A DNA stretch of 64,000 nt from an uncultured candidate division Zixibacteria bacterium (GTDB taxonomy: Bacteria; Zixibacteria; MSB-5A5; UBA10806), in assembly GCA_963817915.1 (NCBI GenBank), contig CAWFQL010000017.1, positions 529,704 through 593,703 of the forward strand, in the 5' to 3' direction. This document shows positions 50,317 to 63,907 of this stretch, in pieces (position 1 is the stretch's first letter; every line of letters begins with the position of its first letter). The translations under genes were made by a program, and so were the position numbers. Below the pieces are notes generated by a model. The model saw only the letters and a list, made by a program, of their open reading frames with translations. It did no database searches and was not told the DNA's origin.

Positions 50317-50874
50317 ATGCCTAAAAATAGCGCGGTTGTAATCATGAATGAGATGTCGATCAGCCTGGCAATCAGCAGGATCGCCCATGAAATTATCGAG
50401 CGCAATCAGGGCACTGAGAATGTCGCCATTATCGGCATCCGCACCCGAGGCGCGATAATTGCCGAACGGTTGGCCGATGCCTTAACCAAAATCGGCAAAA
50501 TCGCCGTGCCTGTGGGTATTCTCGATATCACTCTCTATAGAGACGATGTCCAGGATAAGCTCGATCAGCCGATTTTGCAAAAAACCGAAATTCTCTTCGA
50601 TATCGCCGATAGAACTGTCGTCTTAGTTGACGACGTATTATTTACCGGACGAACCATTCGCGCCGCTCTCGATGGCATAATCGATCTCGGCAGACCCCGT
50701 TCAATTCAATTGGCCGTTCTCGTAGATAGGGGTCATAGAGAGCTTCCGATTGGCGCGGATTATGTCGGCAAGATCGTGCCAACATCGCATAAGGAGCGGG
50801 TCGAGGTTCATCTCAAAGAGCAGGACGGCATGGATGATGTGATTATCGATAGAAGCGGAAGGGGAGGAGCATGA
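50317..50874 (+). CDS. pyrR: Bifunctional pyr operon regulator/UPRTase
   Basis: [42 protein letters not shown]. Confidence 0.95.
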
Positions 50875-51810
50875 GCCTTAAATCCCGCCATCTTCTCGGA
50901 CTCGAAGGCGTGCCCGAAGAAGATATTACACTTATTCTGAATACGGCCATGTCGTTCAAGGAGATATTAACCCGCAAAATTCCAAAGGTTCCGACATTGC
51001 GCGGTATCACGGTTGTGAATCTTTTTTACGAGGCCTCCACCCGCACCAGAATCTCATTCGAACTGGCTGAAAAGAGACTTTCAGCCGATACGATCAATTT
51101 CTCGGCGTCCGGCTCGTCTGTTTCCAAAGGTGAAAGTCTTAAAGACACTATACAGAATATCGAGGCCATGAAAATCGATATGGTTGTTATTCGACATCAA
51201 TCATCGGGCGCGCCGCATTACCTTACAACTTGTTGCGAGTCTGCGGTCATCAATGCCGGCGACGGCACTCATGAGCATCCTACACAAGGGCTTCTTGATA
51301 TGTACACTATCAGGGAAAAATACGGCCGCCTCGAAGGGCTGAAAGTAGTCATTGTAGGTGATATCAAGCATTCCCGCGTAGCCCGCTCCAATATCTGGGG
51401 ACTGCTCACGATGGGTGCCAAAGTCGCCATCTGCGGCCCGCCGACCCTATTGCCTATGGAAGTAGAAAAGTTCGGTGTTGATGTCTACGACAATCTCGAT
51501 GAGGCGATTGAGGGCGCCGATGTCATCAACGTGCTTCGTCTCCAAAAAGAAAGACAAAAAGCTGGTTTGCTGCCATCGCTGACGAGAATACAGTCGTTAT
51601 TACGGTATCACTGAAGAACGATTGAAAAAACTCAATGACAACTTCACAATAATGCACCCCGGGCCGATGAACAGGGGAGTCGAAATATCATCCGAAGTGG
51701 CCGAGGGCCCTTATTCATTAATTCTGCGCCAGGTCACCAATGGTGTCGCGGTTCGCATGGCAATATTATACCTGCTCTCGGGCGGAAAGGGGAAAGTCGA
51801 TGAAGAATGA
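50871..51810 (+). CDS. pyrB: Aspartate carbamoyltransferase (indel near 51585)
   Basis: [25 protein letters not shown]. Confidence 0.95.
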
Positions 51811-53090
51811 TCTCATACTAACCGGCGGGCGAATGATCGATCCCCATTCCGGATTTGTTGGAACTGCAACTATCCATGTCGCCGATGGCAAAATAACGAA
51901 AGTCGAGAAGCGGAAAAAAGAAACGGCCACGGGTAAGAATGTTATCGATCTCGATGGATTGATATTATGCCCGGGATTTATCGATATGCATGTTCACCTG
52001 CGCGAGCCGGGTCGAGAAGACGAAGAGACTATCATATCAGGCGCGCAGGCCGCGGCAGCCGGTGGATTTACTTCGATCGCCTGCATGCCCAATACAACGC
52101 CTGCACTGGATAACGCTGAATCGATCAAGTATGTAATCGAAAAAGCTAAATTAGCGTGTATTCGTGTTTACCCTGTCGGGGCGATTACAGTCGGACGAAA
52201 GGGAGAATCCCTGACCGAAATGATGGAGATGAAGGACACCGGCGCGGTAGCTTTTTCGGATGACGGCTCACGGGCTTCAAAATAATGAACTCATGCGCCG
52301 CTCCTTAGAATATATCCGCACCTGCAATGTCCCGATTATTTCTCATTGCGAATATTCCGATCTCGCCGCCGATGGTGTCATGAATGAAGGATATATTTCT
52401 TCTCTGCTCGGCTTGCGTGGGATTCCTTCGATCGCCGAAGAGCTCATGGTTGCCCGCGATATTATGCTGGCCGAATATACAAAGAGCCGCATCCATATCG
52501 CCCATGTATCCACTGCCGGATCGGTGGATTTAATCCGTCGAGCAAAGAAGGCCAAGCTCAATGTTACCGCCGAGGCGACACCGCATCATTTCACCCTTAC
52601 TGATGATCTGATAAAATCATACGACACCAATCTCAAAGTCAATCCTCCACTCCGCACGAAGAAGGATGTCGATGCGATTAAGAAAGGGCTTAAAGAAGGT
52701 ATCATCGATGCCATCGCCACAGACCATGCGCCGCATTCGATCGAAGAAAAGGAATTGGAATTCGATTATGCACCATTCGGAATGATCGGTCTTGAGACTG
52801 CAGTCGGGCTTGTAATAACAGAACTGATCGAAACCGAGATTCTCACATGGCCGGAGGCGGTTGCGGCGTTATCATTGGCCCCTGCCGCGATTTTGAATCT
52901 CCCCGGCGGGACATTCGAAAAAGGCGCGCCTGCTGATTTTACGGTAATTAATCCCGATATGGAATGGACAGTCCGAGTCGGCGAATTCAAATCGCTTGCG
53001 AAAAATTCGCCATTCAACGGCCGCAAGCTCAAGGGCCGCGCGGTCATGACCATAGTCGGCGGCAAAATCGTCCATTCTTGCTTGTTGTAG
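51800..53090 (+). CDS. pyrC: Dihydroorotase (indel near 52270)
   Basis: [28 protein letters not shown]. Confidence 0.93.
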
Positions 53091-53103: not shown

Positions 53104-53133
53104 GTAGGGCGGAACCCCCGTGGTTCCGCCTGC
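53104..53133 (+). repeat. REP upstream of RAYT
   Basis: GTAG-GGCGGAACC-CCCGT-GGTTCCGCC. Confidence 0.9.
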
Positions 53134-53188
53134 ATGTAAAAAACGAGTCAGATTCACAAGAATTCATAATTACCAGGAGCGATCAAAA

Positions 53189-53701
53189 TTGAGAAATGTA
53201 AGACGTTATTTCAAGCGAGGCCAAATTTGCTTTGTCACTCACGTAACATATGGCCGACTCCCCTTGCTTGTGGATAACTTTGATTTGCTATGGCAATCTT
53301 TTGAAACCCATATGCAGAAACTGGAATTTGAATTGATTGCTTGGGTCGTATTGCCTGATCATTGGCACGCCATAATCGATCCACAAATGAATGATATGCC
53401 TTCTTTGATGAAAAAAATTAAATTAAGCTTTTCGGCTTTATATCGCAAACGAGTTGAAGCCCGATCAATGAGGATATGGCAAAGCCGATATTGGGATCAT
53501 ATTATCAGAGATCAAAATGATTTTAATCGGCATATTGATTATATTCATTATAATCCAATAAAACATAAAATCGCAACAATGCCATTGGAGTATGAATATT
53601 CGTCTTTTCGCGAATATTACGACGACGGCATTTATAATGAAGATTGGGCTGTATTTAAGAAAGTTGAATTGAATGGTGATTTTGGAGAAAGCTTGAAATG
53701 A
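53189..53701 (+). mobile_element. rayT: REP-associated tyrosine transposase (RAYT/TnpA-REP, HUH Y1)
   Basis: FVTHVT..R, AWVVLPDHWHAI (HUH), WQSRYWDHIIRD, YIHYNPIKH, YSSF; flanked by REPs. Confidence 0.92.
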
Positions 53702-54958: not shown

Positions 54959-56251
54959 ATGTGGCGAATAATATTTATAGTCGGATTGATAAGCTCAACG
55001 CAGTTGTCGTTCGCGCAGAATGATATTCTAAAAGATAATCTTCCCACTATCCTCCAGGGCGGCGATAATATTTCAAATGCCTTTCCGATACCGTCAATCC
55101 CATTCTCTGATATTGGCACAACAGTGGGATATACCAATGATTACTCAGGCAATTGCGGAACCGATAATGGCGCGCCTGATGTCGTATATTCATTTACACC
55201 CGATTCCGATCAAATCCTAATGATATCGCTATGCCAAGCCTCGAATTTCGACACCAGGCTGTATATCTTCGATGGATTGCCGTCAGATATCGTCGCTTGT
55301 AATGACGATTACTGTTCCAATGAATTTTCGGATTTATTATCGGGAATCAATTGTGTTCTATTCTTATCCGGGCATACCTATTATATTGTTGTAGATGGAA
55401 ATGGGACAGCGTCAGGGGAATATTCCATAGATATCGGCCCTCCCACACCGGGCGCGTCAATTTTCGGCTTGGTTCGCGAATTCAATAGTGTCCCGATCTG
55501 TGGCGCGCAAATCCGGATTCTGCTTGACGGCATTCCCGTTTGGAGTGATACCTCTAACTACAACGGTTTTTTTACGGCGTTCGGACTTAATGATGGCTCT
55601 TACATGGTCGAGGCATCGAAGCCAGAATTTATCACGCAAACTCAGGGACCGTTCAATGTAATCGCCTGCCTTCCGGTTTTCGTAGATTTTTATCTCCAAC
55701 GAGTCAATCCGCCGCCCGTCGGAGCAATCGCCGGAATTGTCAGGGATTCAATCAGTCTTTCACCGATCGAAGGAGTTTTGGTTCGCGCCTTGCTGGGAAA
55801 TCAGGAGATATTTAGAGATACTACTTTAAGCGGTGGGCTTTTTTTGATGCCCGATATGCAATTGGATTTTTATGATATTGAAGCGTCGAAACTGGGATAT
55901 TTGACCAAGCTGCAACCCAATATCGAAGTCGTCATGAATGAAACGACGAATGTAGATATTTTACTGCTGGCGGTTTTTGCGCCCTGCGCCTATGTTGTCG
56001 GGGATGCCAATTGTAATAATGTCTTCAATGGCATGGATGTTACCTATAGCGTTAATTATTTCAGGGGTGGCCCTCCGCCTCCCTGGACTTGCGAATGCCC
56101 TATAGGCCATAACTGGTTTACGTCAGGCGATGTTAATGGCAGCTGCACATTTGATGGTCTCGATGTCACCTACATGGTCAATTATTTCAGGGGTGGCGCA
56201 ACACCAATACCTTGTCCCGAATGCCCATTACCAAACTATCGTACCCGATAG
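54959..56251 (+). CDS. Secreted protein with two carboxypeptidase-regulatory-like domains and C-terminal dockerin-like domain
   Basis: GAPDVVYSF..FDTRLY; EASKxxF/Y twice; duplicated GDANCNNVFNGMDVTYSVNYFRGG / GDVNGSCTFDGLDVTYMVNYFRGG. Confidence 0.75.
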   Translation: MWRIIFIVGLISSTQLSFAQNDILKDNLPTILQGGDNISNAFPIPSIPFSDIGTTVGYTNDYSGNCGTDNGAPDVVYSFTPDSDQILMISLCQASNFDTRLYIFDGLPSDIVACNDDYCSNEFSDLLSGINCVLFLSGHTYYIVVDGNGTASGEYSIDIGPPTPGASIFGLVREFNSVPICGAQIRILLDGIPVWSDTSNYNGFFTAFGLNDGSYMVEASKPEFITQTQGPFNVIACLPVFVDFYLQRVNPPPVGAIAGIVRDSISLSPIEGVLVRALLGNQEIFRDTTLSGGLFLMPDMQLDFYDIEASKLGYLTKLQPNIEVVMNETTNVDILLLAVFAPCAYVVGDANCNNVFNGMDVTYSVNYFRGGPPPPWTCECPIGHNWFTSGDVNGSCTFDGLDVTYMVNYFRGGATPIPCPECPLPNYRTR

Positions 56252-58853: not shown

Positions 58854-59099
58854 ATGGCAAAAGAAAAAAATCCCGAAGGAAGTTTCGAACTTAAAGTCGA
58901 CAGGAATACGTCTCCCGGCGAGGCCGCGCGGATAGCATTGGCGCAGGAAGTAAGGGCTCGCAATTTCTATGAAGAATGCTCCAAAATAATGACTCATCCG
59001 GGTGCAAAGAAGATGTTCGAATTTCTCGCCAAAGAAGAGGCAAAGCACGAAGCCCTGATCCAGAAGGAAATAGATCTCTATTTTCAGCAGGAGATGTAA
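58854..59099 (+). CDS. Short half-ferritin-like protein
   Basis: Single ALAQE...FY...LAKEEAKH helix pair. Confidence 0.75.
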   Translation: MAKEKNPEGSFELKVDRNTSPGEAARIALAQEVRARNFYEECSKIMTHPGAKKMFEFLAKEEAKHEALIQKEIDLYFQQEM

Positions 59100-60190
59100 T
59101 GAGTTTTCGCTCGGCCGAGTTGCCGGATGAATATAGGGTGGCTTCGGATGACGAGCTTAAAAAGCGAATCACCGAGCAGAAAAATCGGCTGGGGAATCGT
59201 CTTGTCTTACTGACCCATCATTATCAACGATATGAAATCGTAAAATTCGGCGATCACATCGGCGATTCATATCAATTGGCCCGGATAGCTTCACAATCTC
59301 CAACAGCGGAATATATAGTATTTTGTGGCGTTCATTTCATGGCCGAGGCCGCTGATATTCTCAGTAAGCCAAATCAGAAAGTCTATCTGCCGAATCCAAC
59401 TGCCGGATGCCCTATGGCTGAAATGGCGCCATCGGAGGAGGTCTATTCTGCATGGGACGAGATCGAGAATTCTCTCGGCAAGGGCAGAGTCGTTCCGATA
59501 TCATATATGAATTCCACTGCCGAATTGAAAGCATTCACTGGCATAAATGGCGGCCTAATATGCACATCATCCAATGCCGATGCCGCCTTTCGTTGGGCCT
59601 ACGCGAAATTTGACAAATTATTCTTTTTCCCTGATCAACATCTTGGACGTTACACAGCAAAAAAATACGGGATAGGACGAGATAAAATAATTCTCTTCAA
59701 ACCCAACGAGCCTCTCGGCGGTAATAGCGCCGCCGCCCTCGAAAATGCGAAGGTAATTCTCTGGGATGGTTACTGCCATGTTCATACCAAATTCAAAGCC
59801 GAACATATCGATCAATGGCGCGCCAGAGATCCGAAAGTCAAAATCGTGGTTCATCCCGAATGCCCCGAAGAGGTGACAGACAAAGCGGATGCTGTCGGTT
59901 CAACTTCATTTATTGTAGATTATGTGGATAAAGCTCCTGCCGGTTCAATCATAGCAATTGGCACGGAGCTTAATTTAGTTCATCGTTTAAAAGAGATATA
60001 TAAGGATAAAGGGATTTTTGAATTATCTGGAGACACTTGCGCGATTTGCTCTAATATGTTTCGAACTACGTTAGCTGACCTTTGCTTTACGTTGGAAAAT
60101 TTCGACAAGGCAAAACAGATCATTGTCCCTGATGATATTAAGGTTCAGGCGAAAATTGCCTTAGAGCGGATGCTTGAAGTAGGAAAATAG
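59099..60190 (+). CDS. nadA: Quinolinate synthase
   Basis: HHYQR, FCGVHFMAE, GCPMA, YMNS, CTSSNA, GYCHVH, HPEC. Confidence 0.95.
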   Translation: MSFRSAELPDEYRVASDDELKKRITEQKNRLGNRLVLLTHHYQRYEIVKFGDHIGDSYQLARIASQSPTAEYIVFCGVHFMAEAADILSKPNQKVYLPNPTAGCPMAEMAPSEEVYSAWDEIENSLGKGRVVPISYMNSTAELKAFTGINGGLICTSSNADAAFRWAYAKFDKLFFFPDQHLGRYTAKKYGIGRDKIILFKPNEPLGGNSAAALENAKVILWDGYCHVHTKFKAEHIDQWRARDPKVKIVVHPECPEEVTDKADAVGSTSFIVDYVDKAPAGSIIAIGTELNLVHRLKEIYKDKGIFELSGDTCAICSNMFRTTLADLCFTLENFDKAKQIIVPDDIKVQAKIALERMLEVGK

Positions 60191-60232
60191 ACCAGCAGCT
60201 TCCATTTAATCCATAAAATAGCCCATAATTAT

Positions 60233-60355
60233 TGGATTTCGGCCACATTATGATGGGCAGATCCCACAGTTTTTATTCATTTTTCAATATCGCAATTTAT
60301 AAGTCGTTGAACCATATACTTGAAAATATTACTGTTCAAGGGCATGCCCTTTGCA
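60233..60355 (+). promoter_or_regulatory. Sigma-54 promoter 1 with paired upstream palindromes
   Basis: GGCATGCCCTTTGCA (GG 60341, GC 60353); TGGGCAGATCCCA 60254-60266. Confidence 0.75.
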
Positions 60356-60422
60356 CATTACATTGACAGAATTTGAGCAGAAATTATAAACATTAACATT
60401 TATAAAAAAGAGGAGGAGATTT

Positions 60423-60950
60423 ATGAGTAGACAGCTGAAAGCTTTATGGTGGTTAGCAGGATCGATTGCTTTAACGGCTATTCTTATCTTCTCGGGATGC
60501 TCTAATAATTCACCGGTTAGCAGCCAGATACCTGAAGTCAGCAATTTGACTTTGTCATCTGTCGCGCCGACTACTGTTGAAGTCTCCTCGACAATTATGG
60601 CTTCGACCGGCGGTACTATCAATATAGCTGCTGATAAGTACCTGCATTCATTCTCGGTGCCAGCGGGATCAATTCCTTCGGATACGCTTATCGATATACT
60701 TTCTAAGAAGGATCTGGTTCTCGGCAAGTCCGCAATCGTATTCGAATTTGGTCCTGAAGGGCTTGTATTCGGCAAGGCTGCGGTTCTTAATGTCGATATA
60801 ACCGAAATTAACAGCAAGGCTTCATCCGGAAAGCTATATTACTTTGATCCAGCTAAATCCAGTTGGGTACTTATCGCATCGACTGCTGTAAAAAGTGGGC
60901 GGGTTTCATTCAATATCTATCACTTCAGCAAGTATGCTATCGGCGATTAG
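60423..60950 (+). CDS. Lipoprotein with ZU5-like domain
   Basis: Lipobox FSGC; FEFGPEGLVF; C-terminal HFSKYAI; terminator 60978-61008. Confidence 0.75.
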   Translation: MSRQLKALWWLAGSIALTAILIFSGCSNNSPVSSQIPEVSNLTLSSVAPTTVEVSSTIMASTGGTINIAADKYLHSFSVPAGSIPSDTLIDILSKKDLVLGKSAIVFEFGPEGLVFGKAAVLNVDITEINSKASSGKLYYFDPAKSSWVLIASTAVKSGRVSFNIYHFSKYAIGD

Positions 60951-61039
60951 CTGATCAGGCATCAATCGGAAGTTCAGAAAAGGCCGGCTACCAGTTAGCC
61001 GGCCTTTTATATTTTGCGTCCTGACCGTTAAATTATCTA

Positions 61040-61165
61040 TAGGTATTTCCCCTTAGTCTATGGGGTAATTCCTATTATTTTTATCCCTTGCTGCGCAGTT
61101 CGAAGTCTCTAAATTGTTATCATTCAATGGAATAATTAATTGCTGTCGGGGGCACAGAATTTGCA
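61040..61165 (+). promoter_or_regulatory. Sigma-54 promoter 2 with paired upstream palindromes
   Basis: GGCACAGAATTTGCA (GG 61151); TAGGTATTTCCCC and GGGGTAATTCCTA. Confidence 0.78.
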
Positions 61166-61212
61166 CAGTTATATGTAAAATGATGACGGCAATACTAAAA
61201 GGAGACGACGGC

Positions 61213-61767
61213 ATGAGAAAATATTCGCGCATAGTGGAGCTGCTAACAGGGATAATCATTCTTTCTTCATTAGTATTGTTTGTTGGATGCTCGAATAAAA
61301 ATCCTCTGGAATCCAAAACACCGAACTCAAATGCCCTCCCTTCAAGCTCTATTTCACTAAATCCAATCTCGGAATTAGTACAGGAACTTGATGTCTTGGT
61401 TAGCGCTCCAATCAATGCTATCGGCGGAGGCCAAATCGACATCAAGAATGGTGAGAAGCGCCACAAGTTTGATGTCCAGCCTGGATCCATGTCTCGAAAT
61501 GCCGTGATCTCTGTCAAATTAGAAATAGATCTGCTTAAAGGAAGAAATGCGCTCATATTCGAATTCGGTCCTGATGGATTGAGTTTCAGAAAGCCCGCAA
61601 AGCTTACTGTTGATATGAGAGATGTTGATACTGCTGCCGTCAATGCCAACCTTTATTACTACGATTCATCGATGAAAGACTGGATTTTGATCGAAAAAGC
61701 TGCAGTAAAGAACGGCAAAGCAACATTTAACATTTTTCATTTCAGCAAGTATGCAATTGAAAATTAA
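61213..61767 (+). CDS. Lipoprotein with ZU5-like domain (paralog of 60423-60950)
   Basis: AAAGGAG RBS; lipobox FVGC; FEFGPDGLSF; HFSKYAI; terminator 61799-61826. Confidence 0.75.
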   Translation: MRKYSRIVELLTGIIILSSLVLFVGCSNKNPLESKTPNSNALPSSSISLNPISELVQELDVLVSAPINAIGGGQIDIKNGEKRHKFDVQPGSMSRNAVISVKLEIDLLKGRNALIFEFGPDGLSFRKPAKLTVDMRDVDTAAVNANLYYYDSSMKDWILIEKAAVKNGKATFNIFHFSKYAIEN

Positions 61768-61854
61768 GCAACCCCAGTCACCCTCAGCCAGCTGAAAGAA
61801 GGCCGGTCATAAGCGGACCGGCCTTTGATTTTTTCACCAATGCAATTCAGTAGA

Positions 61855-61975
61855 AGGAAAATTCCCATATACTTGGGCAATATCCAATAAAGCTCATCAG
61901 ATAATTTTTGACTGCAAGATTATATTAATACAATACAGCAGGTTACGAAATGGATTCCAGGGCACATTTATTGCT
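61855..61975 (+). promoter_or_regulatory. Sigma-54 promoter 3 with paired upstream palindromes
   Basis: GGCACATTTATTGCT (GG 61961); AGGAAAATTCCCA and TGGGCAATATCCA. Confidence 0.78.
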
Positions 61976-62011
61976 TATTATTAATTAGATAAATCCAAAG
62001 AGGGAGGGTAT

Positions 62012-62245
62012 ATGACAGCGAAGTATTCATCCTTAATGCTTTTCTCCGCGGCGGTATTGGTATTGGGTCTGGTGCTCGTTGGATGCTCCACAAACGTGGC
62101 GACATCTGATCAGATACTTAATCCTCCTGACAATCAAAATGCCACCACAATCACTACTACATTCGAACAGCCGTCAAATGGTACCTCGACAACCCCTGCC
62201 ACAGTTACCGATTCCAGTCCGAATACCGAATCAGGTAAGTACTAG
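62012..62245 (+). CDS. Small Thr/Ser-rich lipoprotein
   Basis: GGAGG RBS; lipobox LVGC; low-complexity tail; terminator 62288-62319. Confidence 0.65.
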   Translation: MTAKYSSLMLFSAAVLVLGLVLVGCSTNVATSDQILNPPDNQNATTITTTFEQPSNGTSTTPATVTDSSPNTESGKY

Positions 62246-62380
62246 AAAGCAGGCTGATTCCGCTTCGGGCGTCATTGTCCGCCAAAGAAATGGGGCTATC
62301 AACACGATAGCCCATTTTTATTTGTGAAATCCATTTCAAAGTAGTTGAGAATCCGGATACTATTCGATATATTCCGCCCC

Positions 62381-62468
62381 GGAGAGGTGCCGGAGTGGTC
62401 GAACGGGGCGGTCTCGAAAACCGTTGAGCCTTCGGGTTCCCAGGGTTCGAATCCCTGCCTCTCCGCCA
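62381..62468 (+). tRNA. tRNA-Ser(CGA)
   Basis: GGAGAGG/CCTCTCC acceptor stem, anticodon loop CT-CGA-AA, long variable arm, GGTTCGAATCC, encoded CCA. Confidence 0.97.
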
Positions 62469-63208: not shown

Positions 63209-63340
63209 GCAGCTGTTCCGGCAACTTTATACACGCAATATTGGTCTATATGAATTATGTGGAATTCCTTTTATAAAATGATGTAGTTTATTATTGAAAA
63301 TGAAATCGAAGCATGGCACGTTTTGGGGAATTTAACCAAT

Positions 63341-63907
63341 ATGAATATCGGTAAAACCATATATGTCACCGAGCGCAAACAATGGCGCGCCTGGTTAAAG
63401 AAAAATTACAAAATTGAAAAAGAGATCTGGCTGATTTATCCAAAAAAATCAACCGGCAAAGCGCGAATCTCATATAATGACGCTGTCGAAGAGGCCTTGT
63501 GCTTTGGATGGATCGATAGCACCGCGAAAAAATACGATGATGACAATATGGCACAGAGATTTTCCCCGCGCAATCCGAATTCGAAATACTCTCAGGCGAA
63601 TAAAGAACGTCTCAAAGAGCTAGCTCGAAAAAAGAGGATAGTGCCCTCAGTCCTTTTGAATGTTCAGGATGTTCTTAAGGAAAAATTCATTTTCCCCGAA
63701 GATATAAGGAAGGAAATTAATTCGAATAAGCAGGCTCGGCAGAATTTCGCCAGGTTTTCGCAGGCCTATCAACGAATACGTATCGCATTCATAGATGGCG
63801 CCAGGAATCGTCCGGACGAGTTTAGAAAGCGACTGGAATATTTCTTAAAGATGACCGCGGCCAATAAGCAGTTCGGATTTGGCGGGATTGACAAATACTA
63901 TAGATAG
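63341..63907 (+). CDS. YdeI/OmpD-associated family protein
   Basis: WRAWL, YNDAVEEALCFGWIDS, RFSPR. Confidence 0.88.
   Translation: MNIGKTIYVTERKQWRAWLKKNYKIEKEIWLIYPKKSTGKARISYNDAVEEALCFGWIDSTAKKYDDDNMAQRFSPRNPNSKYSQANKERLKELARKKRIVPSVLLNVQDVLKEKFIFPEDIRKEINSNKQARQNFARFSQAYQRIRIAFIDGARNRPDEFRKRLEYFLKMTAANKQFGFGGIDKYYR

Follow-up and report, generated by a model that had tools for sequence, protein, structure and literature searches.

Three Sigma-54 Promoter Modules before Lipoprotein Genes as Probable Units of a Cell-Surface Regulon in Zixibacteria

The window (i.e., the whole analysed stretch of 64,000 nucleotides from an uncultured candidate division Zixibacteria bacterium, GenBank assembly GCA_963817915.1, contig CAWFQL010000017.1, positions 529,704 to 593,703 of the forward strand) contains three successive promoter modules between nadA and a tRNA-Ser(CGA) gene, each followed by a lipoprotein gene of its own (Table 1). 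By the sequence features tested, the three modules are sigma-54 promoters dependent on a bacterial enhancer-binding protein (bEBP), and the best explanation as a whole, to which a probability of about 70% is given, is that each of them is an independent sigma-54 unit of a cell-surface regulon extending through the phylum Zixibacteria. The motif and the regulon appear to be new, the promoter type is already known, and the effector seems unusual. In literature searches, no paper was found on sigma-54 regulation or on sigma-factor control of type IV pili in Zixibacteria, or on this regulon. If the reading holds, an uncultured phylum gains a defined and testable master regulon for surface structures, whose motif and candidate activator can be examined without culture, by DNA affinity purification sequencing (DAP-seq) and a heterologous reporter.

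Promoter Modules in the Window

First of all, the sigma factor itself is available. An earlier note, made from this DNA alone, had proposed a triplicated sigma-54 enhancer-promoter-lipoprotein-terminator module and had made it depend on rpoN, which was found in the genome analysed (G000; 3.33 Mb, 22 contigs, 93.9% complete) and in 41 of 41 phylum genomes tested. The three -24/-12 boxes lie where they had been placed, each with the exact GG-N10-GC spacing, and a count over both genome strands gave 14 copies of the strict box GGGCAY-N5-TTGC, three of them being those of the window. Each box is preceded by two activator sites, whose centres relative to GG are at -81/-102 (module 1), -83/-105 (module 2) and -81/-100 (module 3). 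That is to say, the pairing, the 19-22 bp spacing and the proximal distances read earlier were borne out, while the supposed 13-bp unit TGGG-N5-CCCA is really an 18-bp even palindrome. Behind each promoter there is a strong ribosome-binding site and one lipobox gene, closed by a GC-rich hairpin with a T-run (-22.0, -20.2 and -14.4 kcal/mol after genes 1, 2 and 3), in agreement with the claim of one lipoprotein gene and one terminator per promoter; the transcript of module 1 would be expected to start (+1) near 60365-67.

The triplication concerns the promoter module and not the gene, since gene 3 is not a paralogue of genes 1 and 2. Pairwise local alignments of the three upstream regions are at chance level (p 0.075, 0.15 and 0.86) while the spacing is exact, and the geometry has thus been kept while the other intergenic DNA diverged, as had been stated. 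The GG boxes are exactly 810 bp apart despite the differing gene lengths and spacers; this period is taken as a coincidence, because the upstream regions cannot be aligned and another genome with a three-module array (G023) has spacings of 822 and 897 bp. The proposed site for integration host factor (IHF) has two mismatches to the IHF consensus, and it carries no weight, because an equal or better match is present in 575 of 881 comparable intergenic stretches.

Table 1. Features of the array and its two flanking genes, in window positions; site scores are from a matrix trained on other genomes only.
Feature	Position	Strand	Remarks
nadA	59099..60190	+	context, upstream of the array
Module 1 distal activator site, 18-bp palindrome	60230..60247	.	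13.8 bits
Module 1 proximal activator site	60251..60268	.	13.3 bits
Sigma-54 -24/-12 box 1	60339..60355	+	GG 60341-42, GC 60353-54
Gene 1, 175-aa lipoprotein	60423..60950	+	lipobox Cys26, linker, predicted ZU5/MAIN-fold domain; HFS codons 60921-60929
Intrinsic terminator 1	60978..61016	+	hairpin and T-run
Module 2 distal activator site	61038..61055	.	13.0 bits
Module 2 proximal activator site	61059..61076	.	15.8 bits
Sigma-54 -24/-12 box 2	61149..61165	+	GG 61151-52, GC 61163-64
Gene 2, 184-aa lipoprotein	61213..61767	+	predicted ZU5/MAIN fold; HFS codons 61738-61746
Intrinsic terminator 2	61798..61834	+	hairpin and T-run
Module 3 distal activator site	61852..61869	.	11.5 bits
Module 3 proximal activator site	61872..61889	.	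7.7 bits, weakest
Sigma-54 -24/-12 box 3	61959..61975	+	GG 61961-62, GC 61973-74
Gene 3, 77-aa Thr/Pro/Ser-rich lipoprotein	62012..62245	+	without ZU5 domain
Intrinsic terminator 3	62293..62323	+	scored on the minus strand too
tRNA-Ser(CGA)	62381..62468	+	context, downstream of the array

Activator Motif across the Phylum

Homologues of gene 2 are present in 45 of 61 relatives when a single query is used and in 49 of 61 with a profile. Motif discovery was carried out on 32 upstream regions of homologues from other genomes, the window locus and one near-duplicate being left out, and the unseeded search gave the even palindrome TATKGG-N6-CCMATA, whose information content was 12.3 bits for widths of 18 and 20, odd widths reaching 8.6-10.0; the odd 13-bp form, which holds less information than the even widths, was therefore dropped. 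In a leave-one-out test, a tandem pair with the spacing of 19-22 bp beats all 100 shuffles in 29 of the 32 regions, so that the conservation at homologous loci foreseen in the earlier note is found. The three regions without a pair lie at a contig end, before a mis-set start and before the second gene of an operon, respectively. A sigma-54 box follows 97-143 bp downstream of the pair in 25 of the 29.

Moreover, the motif stands out at the level of whole genomes. Among the 25 pairs above 16 bits in G000, modules 2, 1 and 3 of the window rank 1st, 2nd and 10th, while two shuffled genomes gave 13 and 15 such pairs, one each above 20 bits and none above 24. In 161 phylum genomes the exact palindrome occurs 466 times versus 118 for a reversed control, and by genome the motif is higher in 125, equal in 22 and lower in 14. 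A good sigma-54 box lies 60-165 bp from 47 of 69 strong sites versus 10.3 (maximum 16) for random positions, a lenient control whose positions are mostly coding. The distances from site to promoter cluster near 82, 106, 117, 127 and 138.

Members of the Regulon

In G000, a site and a sigma-54 box stand together upstream of genes for several kinds of surface proteins (contig and position in brackets). These include a pilin-pilin-pilMNO-secretin operon (C11:117076), a minor-pilin/PilX operon (C16:448383), an M23 peptidase (C12:557643), a C25 peptidase with a tail of the type IX secretion system (T9SS) type, divergent from mraZ (C17:364701), a DUF4402 cluster (C3:70978), an operon of a 682-aa lipoprotein with DUF5723 and an M6 peptidase (C9:60550), and two further exported proteins of no family. 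Across families, orthologous targets keep both site and box in four other genomes (G014, G016, G017 and G049), and in G016 a flagellin-like gene has both; one cross-genome check covered 20 sites in three genomes, three of the 20 being inside open reading frames (ORFs). Viewed from the promoters, 12 of 43 intergenic strict sigma-54 boxes have a site of at least 8.9 bits. It appears, then, that pilus, peptidase, T9SS-cargo and DUF4402 genes may be co-induced by one switch, and the earlier proposal of an uncharacterised NtrC-family activator co-inducing a set of surface lipoproteins stands, although it was narrower than the data, which extend to a phylum-wide surface regulon.

Near-identical copies of the minor-pilin operon, each with the site, lie on two contigs (C16:448184 and C20:1471), from assembly redundancy or a strain mix. 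Behind the best site of G000 (21 bits) there are four tandem exported DUF4402-like genes (C3:68500-70978), possibly a fimbrial set of the chaperone-usher type. In two families the site is found at a conserved gene pair (C16:221415-222153) whose small products, of about 80 and 109 aa, belong to no protein family.

Assignment of the motif to PilR and the major pilin, or to flagella, was rejected on account of the missing site: a scan found no 18-bp site at the flagellar sigma-54 promoters of G000, and the best score at its major-pilin sigma-54 promoter (C11:180778) is -0.9 bits. Four major-pilin-like genes stand behind the sigma-54 box there (C11:180620-182873), and a nested 20-bp palindrome that differs from the 18-bp site lies about 150 bp upstream.

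Candidate Activator

Above 219 bits, G000 contains 12 full-length bEBP frames, besides which there are one weaker frame and two split ones, and six bEBP groups are conserved across the class. Group C is an orphan REC-AAA-HTH protein (C11:101880-103295 in G000); it was detected in 59 of 61 genomes, with identities of 63-76%. Inspection of its gene neighbourhood revealed no two-component partner, and its scores are below every NCBIfam cut-off (the best being AtoC, 478 versus 714, while PrsR, TIGR02915, gives 451 versus 503). Its Walker A/B and REC motifs and its helix-turn-helix (HTH) domain are conserved. Within 300 bp upstream, a site of at least 11 bits is present in 14 of 33 group C genes but in one of 65 genes of seven other bEBP groups, a comparison biased by the often kinase-coding DNA upstream of those other groups. 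A further box (TnAA-N15-GCCGATA), which we take to be sigma-28-like, occurs in 74 of 85 non-redundant group C upstream regions and mimics a half-site; after removal of the candidate sites that end in this box, the site is still found in 14 of the 85, against 0.9 in shuffles. Such a promoter suggests a cascade from FliA through the bEBP to sigma-54. A FliA-like gene is located at C11:235279.

On this evidence, group C is judged the most likely cognate activator of the 18-bp site, with the balance leaning slightly in its favour. Several observations count against the assignment: its sigma-54-contact loop, GA[FY]T[GS][AS], is atypical (per 100, GAFTSS 38, GAFTGA 19, GAYTGA 18, GAYTGS 16 and GAYTSS 6, with GAFTSS in G000); the group C gene of G000 has no upstream site (best 6.5 bits), like most group C upstream regions; and five other bEBP groups are near-universal as well, so that co-occurrence does not single out group C. 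Identification of the activator by gene adjacency, or by loss in motif-free genomes, was also tried and is uninformative, all conserved groups being found where the genomes were fully examined.

The non-canonical loop in place of GAFTGA and the lack of a site in G000 are also what would be expected if another activator, from group B, D, E or F, bound the site and group C were only a target or an atypical co-regulator, and these four groups are likewise conserved, with fixed HTH helices. This alternative deserves attention but is considered unlikely: the site is absent at the sigma-54 promoter just behind group B and at the flagellar sigma-54 promoters near group A, the enrichment upstream is seen in no other bEBP group, and the sites beside the sigma-28-like promoter fit autorepression by group C.

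Lipoproteins with a Predicted Self-Cleaving Fold

The products of genes 1 and 2, which are 39% identical and cluster together on the tree (support 88/87), are predicted to be stand-alone lipoproteins with the beta-sandwich of the ZU5/GAIN/MAIN fold. The AlphaFold model of gene 2 has a predicted local distance difference test (pLDDT) score of 86.7; it aligns with ankyrin ZU5 at Z 12.1 (root-mean-square deviation 2.8, 119 residues aligned) and with BAI3 GAIN and UNC5b at Z 9.0, and the top seven rows of a Foldseek search are all ankyrin ZU5. Structure alignments to N-fragment chains (the NLRP1 FIIND to residue 1212, after which NLRP1 is cleaved, and several GAIN domains) end at model residue 152, which is the Phe of an HFS motif. 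All three residues, H, F and S, are the same in each of the 34 family members aligned, and the predicted cut leaves seven residues. Among the 150 top homologues, 145 have HFS and one each HLS, HFT and HFC, the other two being a fragment and a 751-aa multidomain protein; the C-terminal tail is 6-7 residues long in 113 of 147, a lipobox-like motif is present in 109 of the top 150, and no complete stand-alone homologue has a nucleophile other than Ser, Thr or Cys. The family numbers 624 cluster representatives at E <1e-10. From motif and model, genes 1 and 2 probably self-cleave between the Phe and Ser of HFS. The lipoproteins had been called of unknown function, yet genes 1 and 2 are not featureless, as they have a predicted ZU5/GAIN-like fold and an HF|S autoproteolysis motif.

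There are also signs that do not favour this assignment. Pfam ZU5 (PF00791) matches neither gene 1 nor gene 2 and only weakly 4 of the 34 members (best E 0.0003), the Nup98 HFSKY match has an E of 1.1, and one alignment to a ZO-1 ZU5 construct ends at residue 152 as well. None of the three lipoproteins scores above a cut-off of Pfam or NCBIfam, and a PDB sequence search gave nothing significant; the nearest named cluster in the atlas is ZU5 at 0.87, which serves as a lead only.

Bacterial ZU5 domains have been described in large toxin and surface proteins, in the part of that source drawn on here (PMC3482391). For MAIN domains, the main text of a preprint by Brogan and Rudner shows HF|S cleavage experimentally and gives the order signal peptide, cargo, MAIN and C-terminal anchor, with a mean of 158 kDa and no signalling role known for the C-terminal fragment; this text contains none of the words "Lipoprotein", "ZU5" and "Zixibacteria" (bioRxiv 10.64898/2026.05.12.724683). 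Genes 1 and 2 share with MAIN, ZU5, GAIN, Nup98 and FIIND domains a beta-sandwich (here predicted), an HX(S/T) before the last strand and export. In contrast to MAIN proteins, they would consist of a lipid anchor, a linker and the domain, nothing more, with an inverted layout and about 17 kDa in the mature form. With the anchor at the N-terminus and no cargo, the large fragment would stay anchored and only 6-7 residues could leave. By motif and model, therefore, genes 1 and 2 belong to the ZU5/MAIN superfamily as a variant without cargo, in which a conserved self-cleavage site could release no enzyme or adhesin, and as small soluble domains they make the role of the C-terminal fragment directly testable. 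The 751-aa homologue (P0110) has the canonical MAIN layout: the domain occurs twice in it, once with HFT and once with HFS, and its tail is S-layer-homology-like.

For gene 3, no credible homologue was found in 30 relatives (one match of E 0.0067 has two stops), and its atlas matches are all <0.9. Lipoproteins of 46-85 aa stand under the same promoter in G044, G048 and G055. The idea that gene 3 is a frameshifted ZU5 gene was dropped, because the stretch between its stop and the terminator is only about 50 bp long.

Cyclase Genes beside the Lipoprotein Genes

The TPR genes upstream of homologues of the lipoproteins encode proteins of 1,350 aa with tandem cyclase, STAND and TPR parts, which in the PDB come closest to human ADCY10 (E 9e-23). 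The two metal-binding Asp motifs of the cyclase are kept, as is its N..R motif, and Asn residues of the TPR repeats are invariant. Of 30 genomes with a cyclase match, 10 have the cyclase gene next to a lipoprotein gene, and the same arrangement is seen in G047, G040 and G037; the cases span six families, one of them with convergent orientation. A conserved three-gene unit (C17:20093-26170 in G000) comprises a histidine kinase (HisKA) with a cyclic-nucleotide (cNMP) domain and PAS, a DUF3307 gene and the ADCY10-like cyclase-STAND-TPR gene (C17:22076-26170); a search of 61 relatives found this cNMP-PAS kinase in 40, with no partner regulator adjoining.

These genes could form a feedback loop in which the self-cut heptapeptide would be imported after its release and would bind to the TPR part of the soluble-adenylyl-cyclase-like STAND protein; the cyclic nucleotide would switch the cNMP-PAS kinase, which would phosphorylate the orphan bEBP and thereby induce the surface regulon together with the source of the peptide. 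The lipoproteins would then be the bacterial counterpart of the tethered agonist of adhesion GPCRs (G-protein-coupled receptors). The loop agrees with the adjacency in 13 relatives of six families while other neighbours vary, with the encoding of the cyclase alongside the kinase and DUF3307, with the preserved catalytic motifs and invariant Asn residues, and with the mini-lipoproteins that occupy the same slot in G044 and G055; kinase and group C both lack an adjacent two-component partner. In addition, kinase or cyclase is present in 40 of 49 genomes with the lipoprotein versus 3 of 12 without (a hand tally; Fisher p 0.0004, the kin not being independent).

However, the genes are not adjacent in G000 nor in the complete genomes of the same family (G006 and G013), and the eight adjacency cases of family f2 probably go back to a single event of inheritance. 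Ladders of Asn are a generic feature of STAND-type TPRs. Four genomes (G056, G032, G041 and G030), picked because earlier queries had missed them, have the lipoprotein but no DUF3307 or such a large cyclase; only one peptide-binding ATP-binding cassette (ABC) protein was found. Genomes in which the kinase was not found still have group C and the motif, which means that the loop cannot be the sole input. Moreover, MAIN and GAIN domains hold the strand tightly after the cut, according to the main text of the preprint (bioRxiv 10.64898/2026.05.12.724683). The loop is thus regarded as improbable, and equally so the notion that the self-cutting lipoprotein is a pheromone precursor in a protease-free, tethered-agonist-like quorum or contact circuit of a diderm bacterium; what the gene order supports is a functional link between lipoprotein and cyclase in part of the phylum, not an obligate loop.

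In the RRNPP systems (Rap/Phr, PlcR/PapR and NprR/NprX), a peptide of 5-8 residues comes from an exported precursor encoded beside a TPR protein. The precursor-like gene beside a TPR gene is the same in the 13 relatives, though not in G000. The differences are that the peptide here would arise by self-cleavage, that the TPR protein appears to be a cyclase-STAND enzyme and not a regulator or phosphatase, and that the cell is a diderm.

Proposed Mechanism

In the preferred reading, that of a sigma-54 surface regulon, two dimers of one NtrC-type bEBP would bind the tandem sites two helical turns apart, and the phosphorylated activator would oligomerise, loop over about 80-100 bp to the sigma-54 holoenzyme and open the -24/-12 promoter, as in the established bEBP mechanism. 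Group C would be transcribed from its sigma-28-like promoter and repress itself through the same site. The same switch would activate pilM-Q, minor pilins, the M23 peptidase, the C25/T9SS cargo and the DUF4402 proteins. The products of genes 1 and 2 would be exported, lipidated at Cys and folded as a single ZU5/GAIN/MAIN beta-sandwich, and HFS would be cut at Phe|Ser by an N-O acyl shift, with the 7-residue last strand held non-covalently, as motif, position and the MAIN preprint suggest. Their most likely role is that of membrane-anchored parts of a surface apparatus, with the cut as a maturation step and the strand releasable. The local array probably arose by tandem duplication of the whole site-promoter-gene-terminator cassette; relatives of the same family (G003, G005, G007 and G009) have a single homologue after nadA.

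HFS could also serve in anchoring, either covalent, when the ester intermediate is attacked by an envelope nucleophile to give a self-made tether, or by strand swap, when the empty groove captures a matching strand of another surface protein. The restriction of the nucleophile to Ser, Thr or Cys in full-length homologues, though no cargo follows, and the co-regulation with pilus and T9SS-cargo genes would suit this idea. Nevertheless, a search of G000 for strand-donor partners found no other ZU5-family protein and no exported protein with the same strand, and MAIN esters are hydrolysed according to the main text of the preprint (bioRxiv 10.64898/2026.05.12.724683), which leaves anchoring quite improbable.

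Points Weighing on the Regulon Reading

Some results speak against the surface regulon as a whole. Helical phasing of the distances is weak after collapsing kin (p 0.01-0.04 at 10.5-11.5 bp). A site taken singly has low specificity, as 35 of the 51 in the genome that exceed 13.5 bits fall inside ORFs, and the site-promoter distance in the window, 81-83, is below that of all 25 homologues with a box. Transcript, transcription start site, binding and cleavage are all predictions for this organism. That the palindrome is instead a repressor operator or a chance AT/GC pattern beside incidental sigma-54 boxes is hardly credible, since, although many single matches are intragenic and promoter activity is a prediction here, tandem spacing, distance range and -24/-12 coupling are conserved phylum-wide and a scan of the module region gave fewer sigma-70 sites than shuffles (8 versus 13.0).

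Comparison with Known Systems

PilS-PilR, with sigma-54 and an enhancer, controls type IV pilus genes. The sigma-54 and enhancer control of pilus genes is common to both systems. The 18-bp site, however, is at the pilin-pilM-Q and minor-pilin operons and not at the major-pilin cluster, and the candidate activator of Zixibacteria is an orphan with no PilS-like neighbour and a wider regulon. With promoters of the NtrC/glnAp2 type, the modules share the GG-N10-GC box, tandem palindromes about 80-140 bp upstream and NtrC-type activators. They differ from bEBP promoters in that the IHF site between activator site and promoter, frequent there although not obligatory, is not significant here, and in that group C passes no NCBIfam cut-off. 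PrsR and the PEP-CTERM box differ likewise, as shown by the TIGR02915 score given above, and the three lipoproteins have no NCBIfam match. The Desulfovibrio regulome, in the part of the article used, resembles the present system in probable autoregulation and many envelope targets, while the 18-bp site is missing from its site lists, CCCATA, CCAATA, TATGGG and TATTGG having only scattered single matches in five supplements (PMC4641369).

Other Features of the Window

Another site of 12.3 bits, with a 7.1-bit partner, lies at 63324-63341, at the start of a YdeI/OmdA-family gene; a search behind it found no sigma-54 box. In pyrB and pyrC (50871-53090), each gene is split by a frameshift, as are two bEBP genes elsewhere in G000, so that these splits are probably assembly indels. 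A REP-associated tyrosine transposase (NF047646) is inserted after pyrC at 53120-53701, and at 54959-56251 there is an exported protein with carboxypeptidase-regulatory-like repeats and a dockerin-like C-terminus.

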